Below, piece after piece: positions 2-64,000 of a DNA stretch of 64,000 bases; within the stretch, counting starts at the first letter, position 1; the number at the start of each line of letters is the position of its first letter. The position numbers were made by a program, and so were the translations under genes. Location of the stretch: positions 231 through 64,230 of IMG/VR virus record IMGVR_UViG_3300045988_094874; one strand, given 5' to 3'. Below the pieces are notes generated by a model, which saw nothing but the letters and a program-made list of their open reading frames with translations, did no database searches and was not told the origin of the DNA. The stretch comes from a virus.

Positions 2-679
2 ATGGCAGGCACAGGCTCGTTAAAGGTCTCTAGCAAGTCCACAAAAGCGTTATTTGAAGTCCTAGGGGAAAGTACCACGGTATCTGTTTTCTACAGCAGA
101 ATGGCTGAATATGTGCGTTCTGAGGTGTATCTTGATGGAGACCATATAAATATCCAGAAATTCTTCCCTGATGTACCGTTCTGGGAAATGGACCCTGCCT
201 CTGTGTATATGTATCAGACAGGAAAGACATTTGTTAAGGGAGGACTATTGTACTTGTGGTATAAGAAGTATAATATTTCAGGTCCTACTACATGGTTTGA
301 GGGCTATGAGAGCTATTTGAAGGAATACTTTGAGCTTCACAGTGAATATGGTGCATTTATTTACAATCCTATGCTAAGGGCTGACGCCTCAAAGGCTGTG
401 AAAAGGTTATTCGGGAACATTAAGAAGGCACAGGCTCACTTTGGACTCTCTCATACACAGTGGTTCTGGTGGTGGAAACGTAGCACAGAGGAAATAGATG
501 AATTATCTAACTGGCTTGTGGAATACTATGGTGTGTCTCATGCTGAGGTGCTAGGCTCTAGGAATATGGAAGCATTCAGGGACAACTTTAGGGACAAGAA
601 TACACAGGAAAGAATATCTAAGGAGTTCATTGAGGACTTTGATGACACAGTGAGATACCTTAAAATTGAATATACATAA
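2..679 (+). CDS. hypothetical protein, 5'-truncated at the window edge
   Basis: Long ORF with a WFWWWK tract; an intrinsic terminator follows directly. No recognisable motif. Confidence 0.5.
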   Translation: MAGTGSLKVSSKSTKALFEVLGESTTVSVFYSRMAEYVRSEVYLDGDHINIQKFFPDVPFWEMDPASVYMYQTGKTFVKGGLLYLWYKKYNISGPTTWFEGYESYLKEYFELHSEYGAFIYNPMLRADASKAVKRLFGNIKKAQAHFGLSHTQWFWWWKRSTEEIDELSNWLVEYYGVSHAEVLGSRNMEAFRDNFRDKNTQERISKEFIEDFDDTVRYLKIEYT

Positions 680-680
680 A

Positions 681-707
681 AGGACCTATCACAGGTCCTA
701 TTTCTTT
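681..707 (+). terminator. rho-independent terminator
   Basis: AGGACCT-atcac-AGGTCCT hairpin followed by a T-rich tract, immediately after the stop at 679. Confidence 0.6.
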
Positions 708-1200
708 ACTCTATACTCTATCACCTATTATCTACTCCTTCGTTACACTCAGGGTAGATAATATAATTCTAAGCTCATAAACATAGCGGGGCTATGTTTA
801 TTCACTAAGAATTATATATTATATAAATGAATATTAATTATGCATATTATTAGTATCATATTCATTAGTATAATTTATATACATACCACATGATACAACA
901 CCGCCGCACCGATACTGCAAGTATAACGATTTTTTGCCGTTTTGTCAACTAAAACACTACACTTTTTATTTTATGCATTTTACCCCTACTTTATGCACGA
1001 AATATCCAGAATTATGCATAAAACTAGTAAATTTAGTAGGATAAAGGGGTAAATATTATAGTTAGATAGATAAATGAGTAATAAATCTATGTAACTAGGT
1101 ATAAAGTATATGTAAGAGACCATAGAATAGTATCAGTTTTTCTTAAAAATGTTACATAACTTTTCTTAAACTAATTTATTATGCTATAATATCCTTCAAG

Positions 1201-1332
1201 TTATCCACAGAAAGGGCTAGTTATCCACAGTTTTTGTTACAAATAAATTACAAAATTGAGTTATGTTACTTTTTGGTAACATTGTGAAATTGTGAAATGG
1301 CTTAGTGACGGGCTTTATAAGAGTTATCCACA
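1201..1332 (+). promoter_or_regulatory. cluster of three perfect DnaA boxes (TTATCCACA) at 1201-1209, 1221-1229 and 1324-1332
   Basis: Three exact matches to the 9-mer consensus in the same orientation within 132 bp of AT-rich non-coding DNA. Confidence 0.6.
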
Positions 1333-1512
1333 GGGTAATCATAGAGAATGCACAAATTTAATATTATACTAAAATATCTATAAATAAATTATACTATATT
1401 CATTTTGAAAAATTGGAGGCTATTTTAGTACCAGAAAAGGGTCACAGGATAACCCTTCAACTCATACTTGCGTATTCGTGGAAGGTTATCTTGGAAGACT
1501 AACGCAGACTTC

Positions 1513-1930
1513 CTCGCAGGGCTCGTTGTCTTTGTTATATTACTAAGCTCATAATACTCCTCGCAGAGCTCGTAGTATTATTTCACTAAGTAATATACAG
1601 CCCTGTGTCATTATCTGAGCCTTGAAGAGGGGAAGAGGTCATTCTTGTATAACTTAGTATCATACAATCCCCTGTGTCTTATTAGGACCTTATAGTAGTG
1701 CTTTAGTGGCTTCTAAGAGCTCATAGAAAGCCCTGTATTCAATTTTAGTGTCTTCTGAGGGGTATTATACTGGAGAGATAAAATAGAGCCTTATATGAGC
1801 TAATTTATAGCTCGTTTAGTACCAGAGATAGGATTATTCTCTCAGCTCATTGCATTCGCAGAGAATAATATTCTACTAATATTCATAGATATACTCGCAT
1901 AGCTCATTGCATTCGCAGAATAGCTCGTAT
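1513..1930. repeat. degenerate direct repeat families in a non-coding region
   Basis: CCTCGCAG(G/A)GCTCGT at 1513 and 1559. AGCTCATTGCATTCGCAGA at 1845 and 1902. (A)GCCCTGT(G/A)T recurs at about 1601, 1668 and 1731. Confidence 0.55.
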
Positions 1931-2581
1931 ATCCATTCATAAAGTAGAATACACAGAACTTAAAAATACGATTTAAATAGTACCTTCGGTACAAGGGATA
2001 CGAACTTAATAAATCCTTATGTACCAAGGCATTGGGGAATAAATATGAATTAAATCATATTATACGAATTATATCGAATACTAAAAACAAACCGTTCGGT
2101 CGGTTTTTAAATAGATATGAATGGTGGATAGAGGAATTGGGATGGGACAAGCCCAGTCCATTTTTTAATTGGGGTAGGAACAAGTCCCAGAGGATATGTG
2201 ATTGGTATAGTACAAATACATGGAAGGTGGAAAGGGGAATAAATAGTATAATATATTAGTAATAAAAATTTTTGAATGGTAAATAGGGAAATCAGACCTC
2301 CCTCCCTCCGTCTCCCTTTTTTAATCGACCTTTTTCTTTATACCTTTTTAACCAAGGAAAAATATACCACTTCTTTTTACTAAAAAGTAAAGGGTAAGGT
2401 GATGTAAAGCCCGTCATGACAACGTTCCTGAGGGCGACATGGAAAAATGTTAGGTGAGGTGGTATGGTATATATGGAAGATAATGAGAGAAAGTGATAGA
2501 AAAAGATAGTTTTCTACCTCCTTCCCCATGTCAAATATATCTGACAAAAATTAGTCTATTTTTCATCCTCTCACTTGCCTA

Positions 2582-2634
2582 CCCTTATAGCTAAAAACTA
2601 TATACCCTTATAGCTAAAAACTATTAGCTAAAAT
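2582..2634 (+). repeat. tandem direct repeat (2.5 copies) immediately upstream of a promoter
   Basis: CCCTTATAGCTAAAAACTAT at 2582-2601 and 2605-2624, with a partial third copy TAGCTAAAA. Confidence 0.6.
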
Positions 2635-2646
2635 GCATAAAAGTTG

Positions 2647-2675
2647 TTGACAACAAGGTTAGAAGATGGTATACT
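2647..2675 (+). promoter_or_regulatory. sigma70/sigmaA-type promoter (TTGACA-17 nt-TATACT)
   Basis: Perfect -35 hexamer, 17-nt spacer, near-consensus -10 hexamer. It faces an ORF-free stretch of about 620 nt. Confidence 0.6.
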
Positions 2676-2679
2676 AGTA

Positions 2680-3290
2680 TCATAAAGATAAGGAAATATG
2701 ACAGAGGTCATAAGATACTGAGGCTATCCTCAACTGTCTAGCTCTTTGAAAAGTACAATAAGACAAGGGAGAACAAGCGCCCTACTGAAAGACTTGCAAA
2801 GACTTGCTGGAGTAGCTCAGAGGCGACCGGAGAAGTAAGCAGGTGAGAGAGTAAGATAGCTTATTCCATGACCACCTGACCAGGACAAAGGCGTACTAAG
2901 TGAAAAGCAAGCCAACCGACAACAACTTATTAGCTAGTGCACTATAGCAAAGCCCAGCATATAAAGCAATGAGCCTCTGACTATGCAAGATATACTGTTA
3001 GTTTGAATATATAGCCTTCTGTGCTATCACTATCAAACAATAGGACAGTCACTACTTACAGACATCAAGCCCATTGCTTCGACGTTCAAATAATTGGGAT
3101 TGCTTGCACTAGCTCACGAACGAAATAATATTATATATCAATAAAACCGCTGTGTCTGTAGGATTAAAGACTAACAGTCAAAACAAATACGCAGGCACTA
3201 TATGAAATAATAAATATGCAACCGAAATATATCAGGCTTTGGGAGTGTAACAGTTCCTAGAGTCATAGCCCGAACACAAGGGCACTATAA
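2680..3290 (+). ncRNA. candidate non-coding RNA or long structured leader transcribed from the 2647 promoter
   Basis: Neither strand has an ORF of 60 aa or more between 2259 and 3310. GC is higher and sequence complexity greater than in the AT-rich flanks. Confidence 0.3.
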
Positions 3291-3309
3291 TTAAAAGGAG
3301 TCATGCACT

Positions 3310-3525
3310 ATGACAAAACTACTCTCAGGGCTCACAATAGCCCTTCTCCTGTGTATCTGGGGCTATTCTAGTTCTCAGCCTAACACAGGGCAGATAATGG
3401 CTAAATTTAGCCAACAAGGCAACTACTTTCTACAGGTTGTAGGCGATAATGGAGAGCTTCTAAATATCCCTACAGACTACAAAACCTATACAGCCTCACA
3501 GAAGGGGCAAATGATACCGCAATAA
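3310..3525 (+). CDS. small secreted/lipoprotein-like protein
   Basis: AAAGGAG RBS upstream. Hydrophobic N-terminus LSGLTIALLLCIWG resembles a signal peptide with a possible lipobox. Confidence 0.45.
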   Translation: MTKLLSGLTIALLLCIWGYSSSQPNTGQIMAKFSQQGNYFLQVVGDNGELLNIPTDYKTYTASQKGQMIPQ

Positions 3526-7050: not shown

Positions 7051-8131
7051 ACTTAACACTTTTGAAAAATTATTGACTATGACACAAGGCGCACTACTTA
7101 AGAGCTTACCTGAGTACCTCTCAGAACGCTCTTATAGCGTCATAGTGACCGATTATTACATTCTGGGGGTATCACCCCTGGAAAGCATTCAACCGTGCCT
7201 AGTGGCTCATTTAGACACTATAAACACGCACAGGGGAGCAGGGTCTTATAACTACGCAACTAAACAATGGGAAACAGTACAAAAAGCAACCCCGAAAGCT
7301 CAAGACCTGATGATTTCTGACCGCTATATCACACTCAGTCCAGAAGCTAATCCAAAGCTGGCTTGCCTAGGTGCTGATGATAGGTGCGGAGTGAAAACTA
7401 TCCTTGATGTGATTGAGGCTGGCAAGCGTCCTCATGTGCTCTTTACAACTGATGAGGAAATCGGCTGTGTAGGCTCTAATAAGATTGTCACAGAAGATGA
7501 TTTGCAAGCCCTATCTGATAGCTCAATGCTCATTCAAATTGACCGGGGAGTTCATGAGGGCTTCTGGAATGAAATGGTATTTTACGAATATGATGAGAAC
7601 TCAATCCCTGAAATTCTCACAGAGCTAGAAAAATATTATACCTTAGCTGAGGGCTCATATACAGATGTCGCTGTGCTTGGTCCTGAGTATGACAAACCTA
7701 TTGTGAACTTGTCAGCGGCTTATGAGAATGAGCACACAAGGAATGAATTTATTAACCTAGAAGCCTATAAGAAAAACACAGAAGGGCTCATCTCATTCCT
7801 TACATGGCTCGAAGGTCAGAACACAGAAGACTGGAAATACACAGAGAAAGCTCCTGTGTGGTCTAGCTACGGAGCTACAGCAGGAACTTGGGAAGGTACA
7901 GACTATGCGAACTATGATGACAACACTTATCGTGATTTTGTAAAAGAAGACCTCATGTGTGTTTACTCAGGAGACACAGACGAGGCAATGGACATTATCG
8001 AAAATTGCAAAGGGTTTAAGACATGGCTAGGAGTAAGCAACAAGTCTTATCAGCTGTATAAAGACGGAGCTGTGCTAGATAGCCTGAAACAACTTGTGAC
8101 TGAGCTGGGGTTAGAATATAAACCAGCATAG
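7043..8131 (+). CDS. putative M20/M28/M42-fold Zn-metallopeptidase-like protein
   Basis: Ordered motifs HLDT (H-x-D), GADDRCG (bridging Asp), TDEEIG (Glu-Glu) and later His residues, as in dinuclear zinc aminopeptidases. Confidence 0.4.
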   Translation: MTKLNTFEKLLTMTQGALLKSLPEYLSERSYSVIVTDYYILGVSPLESIQPCLVAHLDTINTHRGAGSYNYATKQWETVQKATPKAQDLMISDRYITLSPEANPKLACLGADDRCGVKTILDVIEAGKRPHVLFTTDEEIGCVGSNKIVTEDDLQALSDSSMLIQIDRGVHEGFWNEMVFYEYDENSIPEILTELEKYYTLAEGSYTDVAVLGPEYDKPIVNLSAAYENEHTRNEFINLEAYKKNTEGLISFLTWLEGQNTEDWKYTEKAPVWSSYGATAGTWEGTDYANYDDNTYRDFVKEDLMCVYSGDTDEAMDIIENCKGFKTWLGVSNKSYQLYKDGAVLDSLKQLVTELGLEYKPA

Positions 8132-8204
8132 CAAAGTACAGATAATACACTATAAAGAAAGAGAGCTATGTGTTATTCTTTAGCTGGTATTATCTGTACT
8201 TTGG
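8132..8204. repeat. about 73-bp palindromic element, copy A
   Basis: CAAAGTACAGATAATA...TATTATCTGTACTTTG forms a perfect 16-bp inverted repeat with extra inner pairing. The same element occurs three times at 63.4-63.8 kb. Confidence 0.65.
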
Positions 8205-8212
8205 TATAAAGA

Positions 8213-18200: not shown

Positions 18201-19273
18201 TTACAAAGAAACGCAAGATTGATAGGTTTAGGTGGTTGCTAAAAGAGCTAGGAGTATCCTGTGAGCCTAAAATACAAGGTAAGTTAAAGGTAAGTTTCTT
18301 TACACTAAGTGACTTTAAATTACTAAACCTTGTAAAGAGATACTGTACCGAGGATAAAACTCTTCTTGAGCCTTCTCTTACTGAGCTAAACCCTCTTGTG
18401 TACCTTGAGGAAGCAGGTCATTGGGACGGTCATATAAATAAGTTTGGTCTAATACTAGTATCCTCAACAAATAAGGAAACTTTAGATAAAATGCAGATAA
18501 TGGCGATACAATCAGGTGTCCGCGCAAGACTGGCTCTAAGAGAGGAAGCTCATGATAATGTAAGTAATACTTGGGAGTTGTCATATAATCTTGCTAAAAA
18601 GCCTCTGAGTAGGTTTGAAAGTAGGGATATTGACACACGAACTCACCACAAGACTAATTACAATGTCTACTGTGTAACCGTTCCTGAACATAATATTGTT
18701 ATACGCCATAATGGAAAAGTATCAATACAAGGAAACTGTAACTTCGGCTTTTTATATGGTATGCAAGCAAAATCGTTCGTGAATTACGCAAAAACCTATG
18801 GATTGAATTTATCACTCAAGGAAGCTGAGGAGTTCCGAAGTAAGTTCTTTGAAGCCTATCCGACTTTACTGGTATGGCACAGAAGGAACATTGACTTTGC
18901 TAGTAATAAAGGATATGTTGAAGCTCCGTCTGGCAGGAAACGTTTCTTGAGAGATATTTGGTCTGATGATTGGGCTAAGAAGTCTTCTGCTGAAAGACAG
19001 TCACTTAACTCAGCTGTACAAGGCTTTGCTAGTGACTGTTGTATCTCAGCTCTAGCGGATATAGTTTTCTCAGATGAGCTAGACCATTCAAGAGCAAGAG
19101 TATTAGGCTCTGTGCATGACGCTATATTAGTAGAGGCTAAGGAAGACTATGCAGAAGAAGCCTCTCAGATAGTAAAGAACCACATGGAGAACCCTTCCTT
19201 GTTTAAGCTACATAAGCTCTGTGTTCCAATGGTGGCTGATGTAGAAATCGGCAAGGGCTGGGGTATTCACTAA
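15227..19273 (+). CDS. family-A (Pol I-like) DNA polymerase with a 3'-5' exonuclease domain, interrupted by two inteins
   Basis: Exo I LDIETTGLD. Motif A (C)DLSQAELR split after KIIE. Motif B RTQAKS|CNFGFLYG split. Motif C VHDAIL. Extein length after intein removal is about 715 aa. Confidence 0.85.
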   Translation: MKKRDLMVLAKRLSSVELFSLDIETTGLDRYRDKIVSVQISYDFNGKEYDHFIWWEQYTKEEWQAFLKAIAKLNMVTHNGKFDILFLYVHTGVFMELYMDTQVLAHVSGEVELGLKPLVVKYFGDDYDVSKEIKVSGKRDSLTTLKGFITKYFTGTELVMEQTTKENAEAFLSGLKTKAQKNACELIDNEDGTFDVTRKWVHKDRTAMNKLAQQVYDELEGGILISGMSVEATDRLCKAFESLDSTIILETLKDVTQELVEANNKKLVVYGKKDTRYTLKLVPIFKKIIKKYKMIKVYKHEMRAYKAYSIIEKQGIYIDPNRHKVSEQLRAEYTEYLEELNEVAEINWNSTQQVAKVLFGKKGAPVIVDGKEVGKSLGLKPVKKSASGNPSTDDETLVELSAVSEVAKNLREYKRLTKLDTFIKSWDEIAVDGQIHPSFNITARTGRTTCSNPNLQQVPQNSNVRGIIYARPGYKIIECFSGDTEVLTEKGWQRFDSLDKGIKLAQYDCESEEISFEQPLRYIHQENRPTFHYEDRNTSVFATANHNVLTRYTNRVTRKHPFKETNFSRANQFINAGFYTTNYKYSDKYTRFLAMFISDGYMDNYGNISFGFRKQRKIDRCKHVLEELGISFKLNQYTRKGNAKDTMFRIGKVMTQFVNEYSESYKVLSTKTAFELNPAVYLEEAQYWDGTPIVKGKSVRFVSTQKKTLEVMQLMGVFCGIKMVIHRDNHRDKDCHKYAYYVNYKPKGDRFTCMNEQGVDFSNPTYQDVYCITMPLGTCVIRHKGKVSIQSQCDLSQAELRVAADFSGDKNMIHAYQSGSDLHSKTTEMMFGNLEGLDHDELKRKRTQAKSCFSGDTEILTDKGFVPFNMYDGVTRVAQYNIESQEISYTEPLDFRMIPNQKICVFENENTSLKLTPNHECIIQVQNTRKYMKKIPFEELAGHGQSKYAWVNAGYYNYDKNKFIDDKLTRFVACFVADGSYSSSKNAIRFGFTKKRKIDRFRWLLKELGVSCEPKIQGKLKVSFFTLSDFKLLNLVKRYCTEDKTLLEPSLTELNPLVYLEEAGHWDGHINKFGLILVSSTNKETLDKMQIMAIQSGVRARLALREEAHDNVSNTWELSYNLAKKPLSRFESRDIDTRTHHKTNYNVYCVTVPEHNIVIRHNGKVSIQGNCNFGFLYGMQAKSFVNYAKTYGLNLSLKEAEEFRSKFFEAYPTLLVWHRRNIDFASNKGYVEAPSGRKRFLRDIWSDDWAKKSSAERQSLNSAVQGFASDCCISALADIVFSDELDHSRARVLGSVHDAILVEAKEDYAEEASQIVKNHMENPSLFKLHKLCVPMVADVEIGKGWGIH
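16661..17602 (+). mobile_element. intein 1 in DNA polymerase motif A, with a LAGLIDADG homing-endonuclease domain
   Basis: Starts CFSGDTEVL (Hint block A). LAGLIDADG-like LAMFISDGYMDN. Ends ...HKGKVSIQSQ followed by +1 Cys; the terminal residue is Gln rather than Asn. Confidence 0.7.
17780..18736 (+). mobile_element. intein 2 in DNA polymerase motif B, with a LAGLIDADG homing-endonuclease domain
   Basis: Starts CFSGDTEIL. LAGLIDADG-like VACFVADGSYSS. Ends ...HNGKVSIQGN followed by +1 Cys. Paralogous to intein 1. Confidence 0.75.
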
Positions 19274-21127: not shown

Positions 21128-21527
21128 GATTGTGATTAACCCTTATTACTCAACACAAAAGCTATCACGCATAAATGTACTGGCACAGGTGAGAGAGTAT
21201 AAGAAAACTCTTGATAAGTACGGTGTCAGCTATGAAGTAGTGGAGCTTAATGATGAGCATAAGGAGTTCCTACTAGAGCTTATGGAAGATGACTATTATA
21301 AACTAGTAAGGTTTAAGTTCCCTGTGCCTGACTCTTTTGAGGAGCTACTAGAAAATCCTGAGCTTATGAGAAATGTCATTGTACTTGATATGGAGAAGCT
21401 GAAAATAGGTTTTGCAAATTCAGATGAAGACCCTTATAGTGTATCAGTATTCAAACCACGCATGCTAAAGCGGTCTATGTTAATGGATAGTTTATCCACA
21501 GCATATTACGAAAGAGGAATATCATGA
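21117..21527 (+). CDS. hypothetical protein
   Basis: ORF. Confidence 0.45.
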   Translation: MAVEIVINPYYSTQKLSRINVLAQVREYKKTLDKYGVSYEVVELNDEHKEFLLELMEDDYYKLVRFKFPVPDSFEELLENPELMRNVIVLDMEKLKIGFANSDEDPYSVSVFKPRMLKRSMLMDSLSTAYYERGIS

Positions 21528-24216: not shown

Positions 24217-26061
24217 ATGAAACTAAAATCATTGTCTACGGTACGCCTGCATCAAATGACCGTGTTGTTCGGAAAATCTGGTTCAGGCAAGGCAGAATAT
24301 GTAGAAAACAAAATCTACACCCCTAGTGGACCTAAACGCTTTGGTGACTTAAAAGTCGGTGATTATGTATTTGACCGATTTGGTAAGCCTACAAAAGTAG
24401 TTGGAACATTCCCACAAGGAGAGATTGACGCATATGAAGTAACTCTAGCAGATGGACGTACAGTAATCTGTAATGATGAGCACATCTGGACCACAGTAAC
24501 CTCACGAAATAGTCTTAAGGATTATACATTACGTGAAATTATTGACACAGGTGTTACTATCAAAAAGGGAGGGATTACTCGTAACCGATTTTATATTCCT
24601 ACCCATAGCTACGTCCAATTCAAGGAGCAAGAAGTTAAGGTACACCCTTATCTTGTAGGAACTTTTATTGCAAATGGAGCTTTACGCTCTAAACCTCTCA
24701 CACTATGCTCCGATGACATTTTTGTGGTAGAAAAAGTTGCTAAGATTTTAGGGGCTACTTACAAGAAGAACTCAGATAAGAATTTTAGCTATACTTTTCG
24801 AAAAGAAGGACACATTATCAAAACGGAAGAGGTATTCACAGAGTTGCTTGGTAAGTATTCTCATGAGAAGTTTATTCCTAAGGAATACCTATTTAATAGT
24901 GTAGAAGTTCGTAGAGAGCTCCTCCAAGGACTAATGGATAATGATGGTTCTATAACACCTAAGCATTCTGGAGCACACCCTTCATATTACACAGTAAGCC
25001 CTAGGCTTGCAGATGATGTAGTATTTCTTGTAAGAAGTCTTGGGTATGAGACTTATGTATATGTAGATGAACGTGAAGGGAAACGTACAGGATATGACAT
25101 TGGACTTAGAGTACCTCCACGTGAACGTAAATCACTATTCACATTGCCTAGGAAGAAAGAACGTTCTCTAGCTGTTGAGGGCAACTGCTTAAGACGACGC
25201 TATGAAATGGTTGGTATTGCTAAAGTTACAAAGCTTAATAAGAAGTTACCTATGATGTGTATTAAGGTAGATAATCCTGAAAGCTTGTACTTGTCTAATG
25301 AGTTTGTAGTAACTCACAATACTTCCGTAATCAACTCACTTCCGGGTAAAACTCTCATCATTGACACTGACCGTGGGTTAGCTTCTGTAAGCCCCACTGA
25401 TAATGTTGATGTAGCTGAGTGTTACAACTGGGAAGACATTCTTGAAGCATTTGCAATCGCTAAGACAGGCGATTATGAAAGCATTGCTGTTGACCACTTT
25501 ACAAATGTCCAAGAAATGTGCTACAAACATATTATGGAAAAATACAAAGTGGATAAAATGCAAATCCAGCATTATGGAGAAGCTTCTCCATTGCTCAAAG
25601 GACTTGTTGACCAGCTGGTCGGTTTTAGCTATGATGGTAAGAACGTCCTTGTACTTGCACAGGAAATGAGTATTAACGTTGAGGAAGATGAGGGAGAAGA
25701 TGTACCACGGGTAATCTGCCCTAACGTATCCCCAGCTGTTCGCTCTTACTTGCAAGCCTCTGCACGGATTGTAGCCCATACACAGAAGGAAAACAAGAAG
25801 ACCTTTGAAAATGGCAAGAAATCCATTGAGGAAGTTTATATTGCTCAGGTAGCAGGTAACCCTATCTTGACTACTAAAGTTACACGCAAGCCGGGAATTG
25901 AAATTCCTAACAAGATTAAGAACCCTACGTGGGCTAAGCTCACTAAACTTATCACAGGAGAAACCGCTAAGAAGGCTAAGCCTGCTAAAGAGGAAGAAGC
26001 CCCTGTGACAGAAGAAAAACCAAAACGCAAACGTGCTACTAAGAAATCAGAAGAAAAATAA
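24217..26061 (+). CDS. Sak4-like (AAA_24) recombination ATPase interrupted by an intein in the Walker A P-loop
   Basis: The extein reconstitutes LFGKSGSGK|TSV (GKSGSGKT), then LIIDTDRGL (Walker B) and IAVDHFT. K/E-rich C-terminal tail. Confidence 0.65.
   Translation: MKLKSLSTVRLHQMTVLFGKSGSGKAEYVENKIYTPSGPKRFGDLKVGDYVFDRFGKPTKVVGTFPQGEIDAYEVTLADGRTVICNDEHIWTTVTSRNSLKDYTLREIIDTGVTIKKGGITRNRFYIPTHSYVQFKEQEVKVHPYLVGTFIANGALRSKPLTLCSDDIFVVEKVAKILGATYKKNSDKNFSYTFRKEGHIIKTEEVFTELLGKYSHEKFIPKEYLFNSVEVRRELLQGLMDNDGSITPKHSGAHPSYYTVSPRLADDVVFLVRSLGYETYVYVDEREGKRTGYDIGLRVPPRERKSLFTLPRKKERSLAVEGNCLRRRYEMVGIAKVTKLNKKLPMMCIKVDNPESLYLSNEFVVTHNTSVINSLPGKTLIIDTDRGLASVSPTDNVDVAECYNWEDILEAFAIAKTGDYESIAVDHFTNVQEMCYKHIMEKYKVDKMQIQHYGEASPLLKGLVDQLVGFSYDGKNVLVLAQEMSINVEEDEGEDVPRVICPNVSPAVRSYLQASARIVAHTQKENKKTFENGKKSIEEVYIAQVAGNPILTTKVTRKPGIEIPNKIKNPTWAKLTKLITGETAKKAKPAKEEEAPVTEEKPKRKRATKKSEEK
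24292..25320 (+). mobile_element. intein (343 aa) with a LAGLIDADG endonuclease domain inside the ATPase P-loop; N-terminal residue is Ala
   Basis: Starts AEYVENKIY directly after GKSGSGK. Internal LVGTFIANGALR and LLQGLMDNDGSI LAGLIDADG motifs. Ends VVTHN followed by +1 Thr. Confidence 0.6.
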
Positions 26062-61795: not shown

Positions 61796-61868
61796 AGAGC
61801 GTAGAGGGATTTGAACCCCCGATAGTGAGGTTGCGGCTCACGGTCTTAAACCACTTGACGATACGCTC
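61796..61868 (-). tRNA. tRNA-like element, anticodon GCA (Cys) by manual fold
   Basis: Reverse-complement folds as: acceptor GAGCGTA/TACGCTC; D arm GTC-AAGTGGTTTAA-GAC; anticodon arm GTGAG-CCGCAAC-CTCAC; T arm GGGGG-TTCAAAT-CCCTC. Position 33 is C rather than U. Its 3' portion overlaps the HNH gene's last codons. Confidence 0.45.
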
Positions 61869-62568
61869 GTATAAATTCCTTTATAGAATTTCTTTTTGTG
61901 GGAAGGTCATGTTTCTTTAACCACTTCCTATAAGCATTGTCAGAAATTCCATATCCTTTAGCTAGTTGAAGTAAACTATTTCCTGAAAGTAAATCACTTA
62001 TAAGAGTATCTTTACTAGGTATATTTGAGGCATTAATCTCCTTGTAACACTTCAAACATAGTTTTCCTCCAGTAGGCTTGTTACAAACTACACAATTTTT
62101 ATTCCTGTTATACCTATAACGTTTTATGTGCTCCTTACTATCAGGTTTCACAGGAGGTAAATCTTCCTTTGAAAATTTCTTTGTAGGATAAAATGCTTTA
62201 GGTAATAAGTCTGTTGGATAAACTTTATCTGTGCACCTACTACGTCCAGTTACACTTAACTTACATGTATTTATATTATTTGCATTTTCCTTTGGAGTAA
62301 CCCTTCTCAAGTTTGAAAAGTGGTTATTATCCTTATTTCCATCTATATGGTCTATCTGTAAACCATCTTTGGAGGAAAATCTTTCAACATTTACATAGTA
62401 ACTTAAATGGTGTGAGGAGTATGATTTAGTTTTACCATTTTCCCTTACACGGTACATGAGATACCCGTTTTGATTTCTGTAAGGTTTAAGCTTTCTAAGA
62501 TTTCCTCTAAATATGCTGTAGAGAGCTCCATACTCATCTACAAGATAATTGTCATTAAAGTATCGCAC
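61846..62568 (-). CDS. free-standing HNH homing endonuclease (NUMOD4-like N-terminus, HNH_3 core, C-terminal HTH)
   Basis: DHIDGNKDNNHFSNLRRVTPKEN HNH core. N-terminal NDNYLVDEYGALYS. C-terminal LLQLAKGYGISDNAYRKWLKKH HTH. Confidence 0.75.
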   Translation of the reverse strand: MRYFNDNYLVDEYGALYSIFRGNLRKLKPYRNQNGYLMYRVRENGKTKSYSSHHLSYYVNVERFSSKDGLQIDHIDGNKDNNHFSNLRRVTPKENANNINTCKLSVTGRSRCTDKVYPTDLLPKAFYPTKKFSKEDLPPVKPDSKEHIKRYRYNRNKNCVVCNKPTGGKLCLKCYKEINASNIPSKDTLISDLLSGNSLLQLAKGYGISDNAYRKWLKKHDLPTKRNSIKEFIRAYRQVV

Positions 62569-63362: not shown

Positions 63363-63436
63363 ATTTCCTCCTGAGCTATGTATCTATAATACCATAAGTC
63401 TGAACACAGTGCAAGTAAAAATTACGCTTTTTAGCA

Positions 63437-63513
63437 AAGTACAGATAATACAAGTTAAAGAAATACACATAGCTCTTAGAGCTTATTCTTTATAGTGTAT
63501 TATCTGTACTTTA
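63437..63513. repeat. palindromic element, copy B
   Basis: AAAGTACAGATAATAC...GTATTATCTGTACTTT. Confidence 0.65.
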
Positions 63514-63650
63514 CTCCTGAGCTATAGGAAATGTCACAGAGAGCTCTAAGAAATTACACAAGAGAGCCTTAGATATGACACAGAGGTGGTTAGCTCTTCC
63601 TCTCCCTGTGTTCTAATTTTCTGATATGCTATTATCTGAACTTTGCAAGC

Positions 63651-63720
63651 AAAGTACAGATAATGCATATTAAAGAAATATAGCTCTGTGTTATTCTTTA
63701 TACTGTATTAATTGTACTTT
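63651..63720. repeat. palindromic element, copy C (preceded by a half-copy at 63628-63645)
   Basis: AAAGTACAGATAATGCATATTAAAGAAATA...TTATTCTTTATACTGTATTAATTGTACTTT. Confidence 0.6.
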
Positions 63721-63737
63721 ACTATGGATATTTTACC

Positions 63738-63808
63738 AAAGTACAGATATTACACTATAAAGAATAAAATACTCTGTGCCTTTCTTTACCTTGTATTATC
63801 TGTACTTT
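63738..63808. repeat. palindromic element, copy D
   Basis: CAAAGTACAGATATTACACTATAAAGAATA...TTTCTTTACCTTGTATTATCTGTACTTT. Confidence 0.6.
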
Positions 63809-63879
63809 ACTTTTTCAACCGTTTCACTATTGAAACTTCTAACCAAATATGCTACAATATTTACATGGAGGTAAGGAAA

Positions 63880-64000
63880 ATGAAATATATTTTCTCAGAT
63901 ATTAAATCACAAGAAGTTTCAAGAAAGAATAGGTTAGTATCCCCTGTGACGGCTGAATTTTTATTTAGTATATATGACACAGGGAAGTATGACTTAGAGG
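63880..64000 (+). CDS. hypothetical protein, 3'-truncated at the window edge
   Basis: GGAGGTAAGGAAAATG RBS/start. Divergent from the - strand module. Confidence 0.4.
   Translation, partial: MKYIFSDIKSQEVSRKNRLVSPVTAEFLFSIYDTGKYDLE

Follow-up and report, generated by a model that had tools for sequence, protein, structure and literature searches.

Three perfect DnaA boxes in a conserved non-coding block of an uncultivated Streptococcus phage: a candidate origin and early control region

The stretch of DNA analyzed here (the window) comprises the 64,000 nucleotides (nt) from position 231 to position 64,230 of the IMG/VR virus record IMGVR_UViG_3300045988_094874 and is nearly the whole ~64-kb genome of an uncultivated siphovirus. 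Close to its left end, in a 2.6-kb region poor in open reading frames (ORFs), lie three perfect copies of the DnaA box, the 9-mer TTATCCACA, at 1201 to 1209, 1221 to 1229, and 1324 to 1332. All three are on the + strand, as an earlier reading of the sequence alone (the sequence-only reading) had claimed. We are fairly confident that these are real, selected DnaA sites. What they do is a more tentative matter. The interpretation that we favor, and to which we give a little less than an even chance, is that the boxes are part of an origin and early control region that is assisted or gated by host DnaA and works with a Rep-like protein, a primase-helicase, and a family A DNA polymerase (PolA). 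The boxes would then be high-affinity sites for host DnaA and would supply the host-factor part of that region.

RESULTS

The three boxes are identical over 12 bp and are not a product of chance

The repeated unit is really 12 bp long, since AGTTATCCACAG begins at 1199, 1219, and 1322 and is identical in all three places, which together span 135 bp. The boxes are 20 and 103 bp apart, measured from start to start. A DnaA-box cluster has been defined as at least three boxes with no more than one mismatch to TTATCCACA and a mean spacing of less than 100 bp (quoted in PMC7561715); here three perfect boxes fall within 132 bp with a mean spacing of 61.5 bp.

When both strands of the whole window were searched, the exact 9-mer was found 6 times, versus 0.63 ± 0.77 times in dinucleotide shuffles, and none of 100 shuffles reached 6. 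From the background rate in the shuffles, the probability that three copies fall on one strand within 132 bp is ~1e-10 per position. These numbers bear out the claim of the sequence-only reading that the cluster did not arise by chance. A general over-representation of the 9-mer in the genome, which that reading had named as a possible objection, exists in mild form and is far too weak to create the cluster. Outside the cluster there are three exact boxes, at 21492 (+), 26902 (−), and 28230 (+), versus ~0.8 expected from codon shuffles (P = 0.035), and coding DNA (3310 to 63362) holds 44 sites with at most one mismatch, versus 20 ± 4.7 under codon shuffling. The box motif ranks 6th of 1,680 9-mers of the same composition for such near-sites in coding DNA. 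The near-sites are biased 32:12 to the antisense strand, and therefore their orientation flips with the gene blocks at ~28 kb. Their excess may reflect codon-pair bias or weak selection.

The boxes and their spacing are conserved among close relatives

Relatives of the phage were found through a neighboring protein (80 to 88% identical), and thus independently of the boxes; they comprised 17 loci from IMG/VR and 12 from metagenomes. Three perfect boxes, spaced by 20 and 103 bp, were present in 20 of the 20 loci that reach far enough upstream (14 from IMG/VR and 6 from metagenomes). We then considered an alignment of 15 genomes, the window plus 14 relatives chosen by means of the neighboring protein. 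From 680 to 1600 the mean column agreement is 91 to 100% per 40-bp bin, and from 1620 rightward the identity is 72 to 85%, with insertions and deletions of whole hairpin units. The block that holds the boxes is more conserved than the flanking genes, and 1201 to 1400 is among its most conserved stretches. None of the 36 box positions varies in the alignment, versus ~11% of the columns in the block (P ~0.02); in the 8-nt spacer between the 12-mers of boxes 1 and 2, two of the eight positions vary, and both 12-mers are invariant. Protein scans of IMG/VR and metagenomes and a pattern scan of IMG/VR gave close relatives only and no more distant ones, and because the relatives are so close, a stronger test of selection is out of reach.

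Four of the ~25 near-full-length relatives (L120, L126, L345, and L347) have contigs that start inside the 2.6-kb non-coding region, versus ~1 expected by a rough estimate. The four starts differ from one another and so are more readily explained by assembly breaks at the variable hairpin repeats than by a genome end at a fixed position.

The boxes lie between a predicted promoter and the least stable duplex of the window

The description of the region as ORF-poor was correct: there is no ORF of more than 75 amino acids (aa) in 680 to 3309. Hidden small genes in this interval were considered and rejected, because the two longest ORFs (75 and 61 aa) are broken by stops or frameshifts in relatives. 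The surroundings of the boxes are AT-rich, as had also been noted, with 32% G+C from 1001 to 2000 versus ~40% elsewhere. No Rfam match was found in 600 to 3400 at either gathering or E-value thresholds. Searching with blastn (query 600 to 3400) against 50,697 phage records and plasmid collections likewise gave no match, and with that result we discarded borrowed or mobile DNA as the source of the region. Coordinates of the features are collected in Table 1.

Just upstream of box 1 there is a predicted extended −10 promoter, TATGCTATAAT, which is of the TnTGnTATAAT type; its −35 element is poor, which is why it is missing from the list of a simple promoter scan. Transcription from it is predicted to start at ~1198 and to read through all three boxes. 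The first box begins 11 bp past the −10 hexamer, boxes 1 and 2 together correspond to ~+4 to +32 of the predicted transcript, and box 3 lies ~130 nt into it. The TGCTATAAT core of the promoter is invariant in the relatives, and one position upstream of the core varies in two of them. No conserved ORF occurs in the segment between this predicted promoter and the one at 2647 to 2675.

The spacer between boxes 2 and 3 contains the tandem 8-mer that the sequence-only reading had reported, TGTGAAAT twice in succession, which can equivalently be written as TTGTGAAA twice at 1282 to 1297. The tandem is conserved, its sole change being a substitution of the last base in one relative. On the − strand it reads as two xxTTTCACA motifs that resemble GATTTCACA, the weak trio-proximal box of Streptococcus oriC; the motifs match the box consensus at only 5 of 9 positions, and that the tandem is a weak DnaA site is our conjecture.

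On the other side of box 3 is the least stable 40-bp duplex of the whole window (1359 to 1398), with a ΔG of −34.4 kcal/mol versus a mean of −50.3 ± 3.3 kcal/mol and an A+T content of 92.5%. This unstable segment begins 27 bp 3′ of box 3 and is nearly invariant in the relatives. Farther to the right, the interval from 1430 to 1620 has a fold z-score of −3.6. For the hairpin at 1448 to 1490, 97% of the cells in the alignment are paired and two pairs show compensatory changes (probably a single evolutionary event), a score reached in 0 of 500 shuffles. This hairpin stands at the left of an array of hairpin units whose number varies among the relatives, with the first units (1448 to 1600) almost invariant. 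The motif AGCTCRT, borne by the units, is present in nine copies from 772 to 1928, eight of them on the + strand, at ~15 times its density elsewhere. The array possibly represents priming signals for a RepB′-type primase, termination signals, RNA structures, or protein sites.

TABLE 1 Features of the box region and of the replication genes in the 64,000-nt window
Feature	Position	Strand	Basis or remark
DnaA box 1	1199-1210 (9-mer 1201-1209)	+	12-mer AGTTATCCACAG; ~+4 to +12 of the predicted transcript
DnaA box 2	1219-1230 (9-mer 1221-1229)	+	Identical 12-mer, 20 bp after box 1
DnaA box 3	1322-1333 (9-mer 1324-1332)	+	Identical 12-mer, then GGG, then the AT-rich segment
Predicted extended −10 promoter TATGCTATAAT, weak −35	1180-1190	+	Read directly from the sequence
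Tandem TGTGAAAT ×2	1283-1298		A+T-rich spacer before box 3
Candidate DNA unwinding element, AT-rich	1352-1410		Nearest-neighbor stability
Conserved non-coding block holding the boxes	About 680/700-1600 (~900 bp)		Alignment of 15 genomes
Two-way terminator	681-699	Both	Closes the first gene
Long hairpins	761-817 and 818-875		Fold analysis
Leftward consensus-like sigma-70-type promoter, TTGACA-17-TATACT	920-948	−	Promoter scan; points away from the boxes
Three TTATGCAY motifs, 20 to 21 bp apart	971, 991, 1012 (971-1021)	+	Between the two divergent promoters
16-bp hairpin right of the AT-rich segment	1448-1490	+	Fold and pair covariation
Long imperfect hairpin, first of the hairpin-unit array	1537-1597 (array 1440-1960)	+	Units bear AGCTCRT
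Two palindromic operator-like units (TATAG-N-CTATA)	2580-2624		Upstream of the promoter at 2647-2675
Strong promoter, TTGACA-17-TG-TATACT	2647-2675	+	Promoter scan; right border of the non-coding region
Candidate initiator, two tandem winged-helix domains	9534-10892	+	Directly upstream of the primase-helicase gene
Primase-helicase, RepB′-type primase and AAA_25 helicase domains	10882-12582	+	Domain search
Family A DNA polymerase (PolA), 3′-5′ exonuclease domain and intein	15227-19273	+	Domain search

Host DnaA is the likely reader of the boxes

The bases flanking the 9-mers point to boxes of the host type, as the sequence-only reading had proposed. Perfect boxes in 80 Streptococcus dnaA loci typically read (A)AGTTATCCACA(G/A). 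The segment of E. coli oriC next to mioC contains AGTTATCCACAG, and its opposite strand reads GTTATCCACAGGG; the latter, found at box 3, is the reverse-complement reading of the box by the unwinding side of E. coli oriC. The E. coli boxes that match AGTTATCCACAG and GTTATCCACAGGG we take to be R4 and R1, respectively. The flanks of the phage 12-mers thus agree with those of the perfect boxes in both oriC regions. Because most of the boxes of Streptococcus oriC, which are in mixed orientation, carry one mismatch, the phage sites are at least as good as the host's own.

A profile search (Streptococcus and Bacillus DnaA) of all six-frame ORFs of the window found no DnaA homologue, and a phage-encoded DnaA was accordingly dropped as a candidate. 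Since the window encodes none, the host's DnaA is the likely binding protein of the boxes. In the dnaA-dnaN spacer of the host, the order on the box strand is a box, TTTTCCACA, followed by GATTTCACA, the trios CTA TTA TTA CTA TTA, and AT-rich DNA. Box 3 has the same polarity, with the unwinding segment on its 3′ side, after GGG. The possibility that the region is a copy of the host oriC was rejected: when it was compared with the 80 Streptococcus dnaA loci, the likeness was limited to the boxes and their flanks. We attribute a shared 14-mer, TTGGTAACATTGTG, to coincidence, as it is present in only 4 of the 80 host loci.

Genome organization, presumed host, and replication proteins

Early and replication genes, including one for a PD-(D/E)XK nuclease, are found in the early block, which is on the + strand between 3.3 and 28 kb; the late block, on the − strand between 63.4 and 28 kb, contains the genes for the terminase, portal, tape measure, and lysins. 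The first gene on the + strand starts at 63881 and runs on into 2 to 679. The host is almost certainly a Streptococcus, because the endolysin is 60% identical to Streptococcus phage lysins and because the phage encodes an LPXTG-anchored protein. The habitat of this phage family is probably human-associated and oral, given that many of the relatives stem from human metagenome or Human Microbiome Project-style samples. The phage is apparently virulent: among ~50 ORFs scanned, which are part of the window's ORFs, no integrase, repressor, or partition genes were seen, and the idea of a plasmid-prophage was set aside for that reason.

That the phage encodes its own primase-helicase and its own PolA, the latter interrupted by an intein, had been claimed by the sequence-only reading and is correct. 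Judged by the replication genes, Lactococcus phage KSY1 is the closest isolated phage, and its primase-helicase is 31% identical to that of the window. The ORF at 9534 to 10892 is a provisional candidate for a Rep-like initiator. It has weak PHROG matches to a replication initiation protein and to a DnaD-like helicase loader, and its remote relatives match HTH_36 and, weakly, DnaD_N and RepA_N. In the AlphaFold 2 model there are two helix-helix-helix-wing units, with a predicted local distance difference test (pLDDT) score of 75 to 85 over residues 1 to 220 only. Foldseek aligned the model with the staphylococcal RepA initiator (4pt7 and 5kbj) with a probability of 0.91 and an E value of 0.3, which is not significant, and the label "Rep-like" is provisional on that account. 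The protein is a near-orphan: 5.8 and 1.8 billion proteins were searched, and 2 close and 2 remote homologues were found, with no match in PDB or NCBIfam.

Two genes of the early block probably contain inteins with homing-endonuclease domains, the DNA polymerase gene at 15227 to 19273 (Hint and LAGLIDADG_3) and the gene for an AAA_24 protein at 24217 to 26061 (LAGLIDADG_3 and Hom_end). The KSY1 polymerase is likewise annotated as intein-containing. The LPXTG cell-wall-anchored protein (13480 to 14973), which has bacterial Ig and collagen-binding domains, is encoded inside the early/replication block and is odd cargo for a virulent phage. At the other end of the genome, a tRNA-Cys gene (61796 to 61868, −) shares 23 nt with the 3′ end of an ORF for an HNH endonuclease (61846 to 62568, −), which sits just upstream of the packaging genes.

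Other elements of the non-coding region

Leftward of the boxes, both hexamers of the promoter at 948 to 920 are conserved in the relatives. Its predicted transcript, starting at ~912, would be ~230 nt long and non-coding and would end at the two-way terminator at 681 to 699. Within the path from 681 to 948 there are a pair of long hairpins and the segment that ranks second in the genome for low duplex stability (813 to 852), all of them highly conserved; the hairpin at 761 to 817 has a 27-bp stem and is related to the hairpin array at 1440 to 1960. Six of the nine copies of TTATGCAY in the window are in the non-coding region. The repeats between the divergent promoters are possible protein-binding sites, a weak assignment, and the third copy is not kept in all relatives.

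At the right border, the promoter at 2647 to 2675 and the paired palindromes upstream of it are kept in the relatives, and both arms of a palindrome change together (e.g., TATAGGCGTAGCCTATA), as would be expected for the operator of a dimeric regulator. A ~630-nt untranslated leader separates this promoter from the first ORF, at 3310. Relatives bear an extra 90-aa ORF within 2580 to 3309. The divergent region between the late and early blocks is filled, from 63430 to 63812, by three palindromic units of ~85 bp (AAAGTACAGATAAT...AAAGAA / TTCTTT...ATTATCTGTACTTT), and a fourth copy is found in the intergenic gap at 8128 to 8207. These units could be operators, terminators, or an alternative origin.

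Arrays of perfect boxes are common in other viral contigs

We scanned IMG/VR for the pattern of the boxes and found the pair in at least 119 contigs and the triple in at least 120, most of them unrelated to this phage. Some viral contigs among the matches listed have 9 to 17 perfect boxes in intergenic DNA, with as many as 17 in ~450 bp (examples are L139:9026-9468, L142:8-416, L140:10566-10793, L084:12361-12517, and L082:10620-10748). In 117 unrelated loci with at least three perfect boxes, again among the matches listed, the start-to-start distances of the boxes peak at 11 to 12, 21 to 22, and 33 bp, the pattern to be expected if DnaA oligomers assemble on a single face of the helix. The 5′ flank in these loci is AG in 287 cases (the next commonest flank occurs in 86), and the 3′ flank is G in 354 of 516. 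Genes adjacent to the arrays encode a methylase, RusA, an RNA ligase, and a protein resembling an RNA-dependent RNA polymerase; they are phage-like and have no common theme. We found no survey of phage DnaA-box arrays in the literature searched.

DISCUSSION

A candidate origin and early control region

We envisage a sequence of four steps. Host RNA polymerase would fire the promoter at 1180 to 1190, and transcription would proceed rightward across the three boxes and the AT-rich segment. DnaA, once on its boxes, would help to open the unstable segment at 1352 to 1410, on the 3′ side of box 3, or would gate access to it. The phage's Rep-like winged-helix protein, primase-helicase, and PolA would then take over, and the hairpins at 1448 to 1600 may act as priming or loading signals. 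Origins of plasmids and of phage P1 that pair winged-helix initiators with DnaA boxes are a known design.

The sequence-only reading had offered either a replication origin that recruits host DnaA or an element for DnaA titration or takeover. The first half of this proposal fits the context: the boxes are in a highly conserved, truly non-coding block beside the least stable duplex, and the adjacent promoter reads through them. Titration or takeover is the less likely half because three boxes make a weak DnaA sink. The check by GC skew that the same reading had suggested gave an ambiguous answer. The cumulative minimum is at the box end of the genome, within ~1.5 kb of the box region, as is the point where the early and late blocks diverge, but the skew here is inseparable from gene orientation.

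A number of further points weigh against an origin at the boxes. We infer DnaA binding, promoter activity, the start of replication at this place, and every protein-protein step from the sequence. The replication genes are 8 kb away from the boxes, and initiators of the RepA_N kind often carry the origin inside their own gene. The second repeat-rich non-coding region, at 63363 to 63880, is an alternative origin candidate. No convincing iterons (at least three direct repeats of ~17 to 22 bp) were found beside the boxes, only the short TTATGCAY motifs, and the 22-bp repeats at 2580 to 2624 are palindromic operators upstream of a promoter rather than iterons. Conservation counts for less than it otherwise would because all of the relatives are close. 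Over the 39 kb examined (40 to 79 kb), no perfect box was found in KSY1, the phage that has the replication genes in common with ours, and we therefore rejected the boxes as a shared trait of the replication-gene lineage. The 20-bp spacing is rare in the box clusters of other phages, with their peaks at 11 to 12 and 21 to 22 bp. In E. coli, moreover, DnaA is found mainly on box pairs with a gap of 2 to 3 bp, and of 32 perfect single boxes it bound only 13 in vivo (PMC11317965).

The pattern of a bacterial unwinding module also failed to appear. The basal unwinding system of bacteria consists of tandem boxes no more than 3 bp apart followed by at least three trios (3′-[G/A]A[T/A]-5′) (PMC8287927). 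In the phage, boxes 1 and 2 are separated by 11 bp, the 9-mers 3 bp from boxes 1 and 2 match the consensus at only 5 of 9 positions, and no run of three or more DnaA-trios (5′-YTW-3′) occurs within 16 bp of any box. The sole run of three YTW triplets, at 1266 to 1274, is 37 nt from box 2, and none follows box 3. Because it has neither trios nor tightly paired boxes, the region is not a copy of the unwinding module of the host oriC. What the two systems have in common (PMC8287927, PMC6669920) is a perfect box, a short run of G's, and an AT-rich segment on the 3′ side, together with upstream boxes at a distance of ~100 bp, like the distal box that acts by looping in B. subtilis. They differ in the trios, in the tandem boxes, and in the want of any similarity to oriC beyond the boxes.

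Alternative explanations

The boxes might serve only to control transcription, the origin being elsewhere, which we consider unlikely but the most credible departure from an origin. By binding at ~+4 to +32, DnaA would block or stimulate the promoter at 1180 to 1190 and so make an early non-coding transcript, or else readthrough to the early genes, respond to host DnaA and the state of host replication. Phage lambda offers a precedent, since DnaA acts on its pR promoter from downstream boxes and in this way activates ori-lambda transcriptionally. In lambda, DnaA boxes follow shortly after an early promoter from which transcription runs past the origin region, and the boxes here have a like position behind a predicted promoter; the two phages differ in that the lambda boxes are weak and those here are perfect. 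The placement of boxes 1 and 2, starting 11 bp past the −10 hexamer of TATGCTATAAT, the invariance of both the TGCTATAAT core and the boxes, and the lack of iterons and trios all fit such a role, and DnaA is a known transcription factor (PMC11317965, PMC4447404). A simple operator, however, leaves unexplained box 3, which is ~130 nt into the transcript and beside the least stable DNA; the promoter is a predicted one and is absent from the list given by the promoter scan; and there is no coding target for 2 kb downstream. Control of transcription also overlaps with the origin that we favor, because transcription through an origin can belong to its firing.

Alternatively, the multiplying phage genomes might soak up host DnaA and so stop new rounds of chromosome replication. 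The boxes are closer to the consensus than most boxes of the host oriC, many unrelated viral contigs have larger, sink-like arrays (up to 17 perfect boxes among the matches listed), and titration by chromosomal sites is an accepted mode of control in E. coli (PMC12371093). We nevertheless find a sink very doubtful. With three boxes per genome, it would make itself felt only late, at a stage when initiation by the host is of little consequence for a virulent phage. A sink needs neither the fixed spacing of 20 and 103 bp nor a promoter nor an unstable neighboring segment, and the spacing differs from the 11 to 12 bp that DnaA pairs prefer (PMC11317965 and the phage clusters described above). Nor do we give much credit to a different reader of the 12-mer, a phage protein or some other host protein whose site happens to coincide with a DnaA box. 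Many early phage proteins have no recognizable family, and the identity of the three sites extends over 12 bp, beyond the classical 9-mer, which would suit such a protein. Yet the extra bases are the ones favored around DnaA boxes, both in oriC (of the host and of E. coli) and in clusters from unrelated phages, a phage operator is very unlikely to match the perfect 9-mer consensus three times by chance, and no DnaA-like DNA-binding domain is encoded in the window. We therefore judge it highly improbable.

The least probable explanation, in our view a remote one, is a role in DNA entry like that proposed for phage T5, in which the boxes would hold the entering genome at membrane-associated DnaA and so pause or anchor injection. 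The 8 DnaA boxes of T5, which encodes a polymerase of its own, lie in a large untranslated region and have been proposed as an injection stop signal (bioRxiv 10.1101/866236). The anatomy is similar: both phages are lytic (ours apparently so) and encode a polymerase, and in both a conserved untranslated region of kilobase scale is rich in direct and inverted repeats and palindromes and bears consensus boxes kept across all relatives. The contigs of four relatives, moreover, begin inside the region, but they begin at four differing positions, which fits assembly breaks at repeats. The T5 boxes are in pairs 3 bp apart within inverted repeats, inside the terminal repeat, whereas here three same-strand boxes, the closest two separated by 11 bp, lie outside repeats, behind a promoter and ahead of an AT-rich segment. 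T5 has a Gram-negative host, and its origins map elsewhere. We know of no two-step injection among phages of Gram-positive hosts. The proposal for T5 is, in addition, itself only a proposal (bioRxiv 10.1101/866236).

Comparison with known systems

P1 oriR, F, pSC101, and RK2 have iteron-type origins with auxiliary DnaA boxes. The phage resembles them in its host-type DnaA boxes beside an AT-rich segment and in having a candidate (weakly assigned) winged-helix initiator of its own; at those origins the segment is opened with DnaA as a helper, as would be the case here. It differs in that it is apparently virulent, encodes a primase-helicase and PolA, and has no clear iterons beside the boxes. 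A second likeness is to the origin of the c2-type (Ceduovirus) lactococcal phages, where initiation requires a structured non-coding transcript made from the first early promoter (PMC7150918). Like our phage, these are virulent phages of lactic acid bacteria with divergent early and late blocks (PMC7150918), and their origin, which contains no ORF, is flanked by the first two early promoters, as the segment here is by predicted ones. The c2-type origin works with host factors, as we propose for the boxes. The differences are that blastn (600 to 3400 against the 50,697 phage records) found no sequence similarity to the c2, bIL67, and 923 types, that the segment here is 2.6 kb long and one gene away from the divergence point, that DnaA boxes are not mentioned in PMC7150918, and that the phage described here has replication proteins of its own.

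P1 and lambda are precedents for DnaA boxes in phage control regions. The statement of the sequence-only reading that boxes would be unusual in a phage with its own replication proteins was therefore too strong, given also T5 (bioRxiv 10.1101/866236) and the at least 120 IMG/VR contigs with three or more perfect boxes. Boxes have also been annotated with Ori-Finder in the S. mutans phage phiKSM96 (PMC10713843). DnaA boxes in the control regions of phages and plasmids (P1, lambda, and T5) are thus already known. What is new is the setting, a family of uncultivated, apparently virulent phages of Streptococcus whose replication proteins include PolA and an IncQ-like primase-helicase, and the arrangement, in which three perfect boxes with identical flanks stand between a predicted promoter and the weakest duplex of the genome.

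Implications

The analysis locates a candidate origin and early control region in an uncultivated Streptococcus phage family. If the boxes belong to an origin, a phage with its own initiator, helicase-primase, and polymerase is predicted still to depend on, or listen to, host DnaA. DnaA status would then be a factor in the host range and timing of these phages. The 900-bp block would, moreover, become a candidate for use in streptococci, either as a replicon or as a decoy that confers phage resistance, as has been done with the origins of lactococcal phages. A broader idea, which we think improbable, is that virulent phages use host DnaA as a gate or target and not only as a helper, and that their arrays capture it. 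In this phage, with its boxes at the start of a predicted non-coding transcript that leads into the unwinding segment, the firing of the origin would on that view depend on the pool of free DnaA and hence on the replication state of the host. Viral box arrays would then be a widespread class of DnaA-capturing elements that shut down or borrow host initiation. The wider by-product of this work, that arrays of perfect boxes are common in viral contigs, may matter more than the single case.

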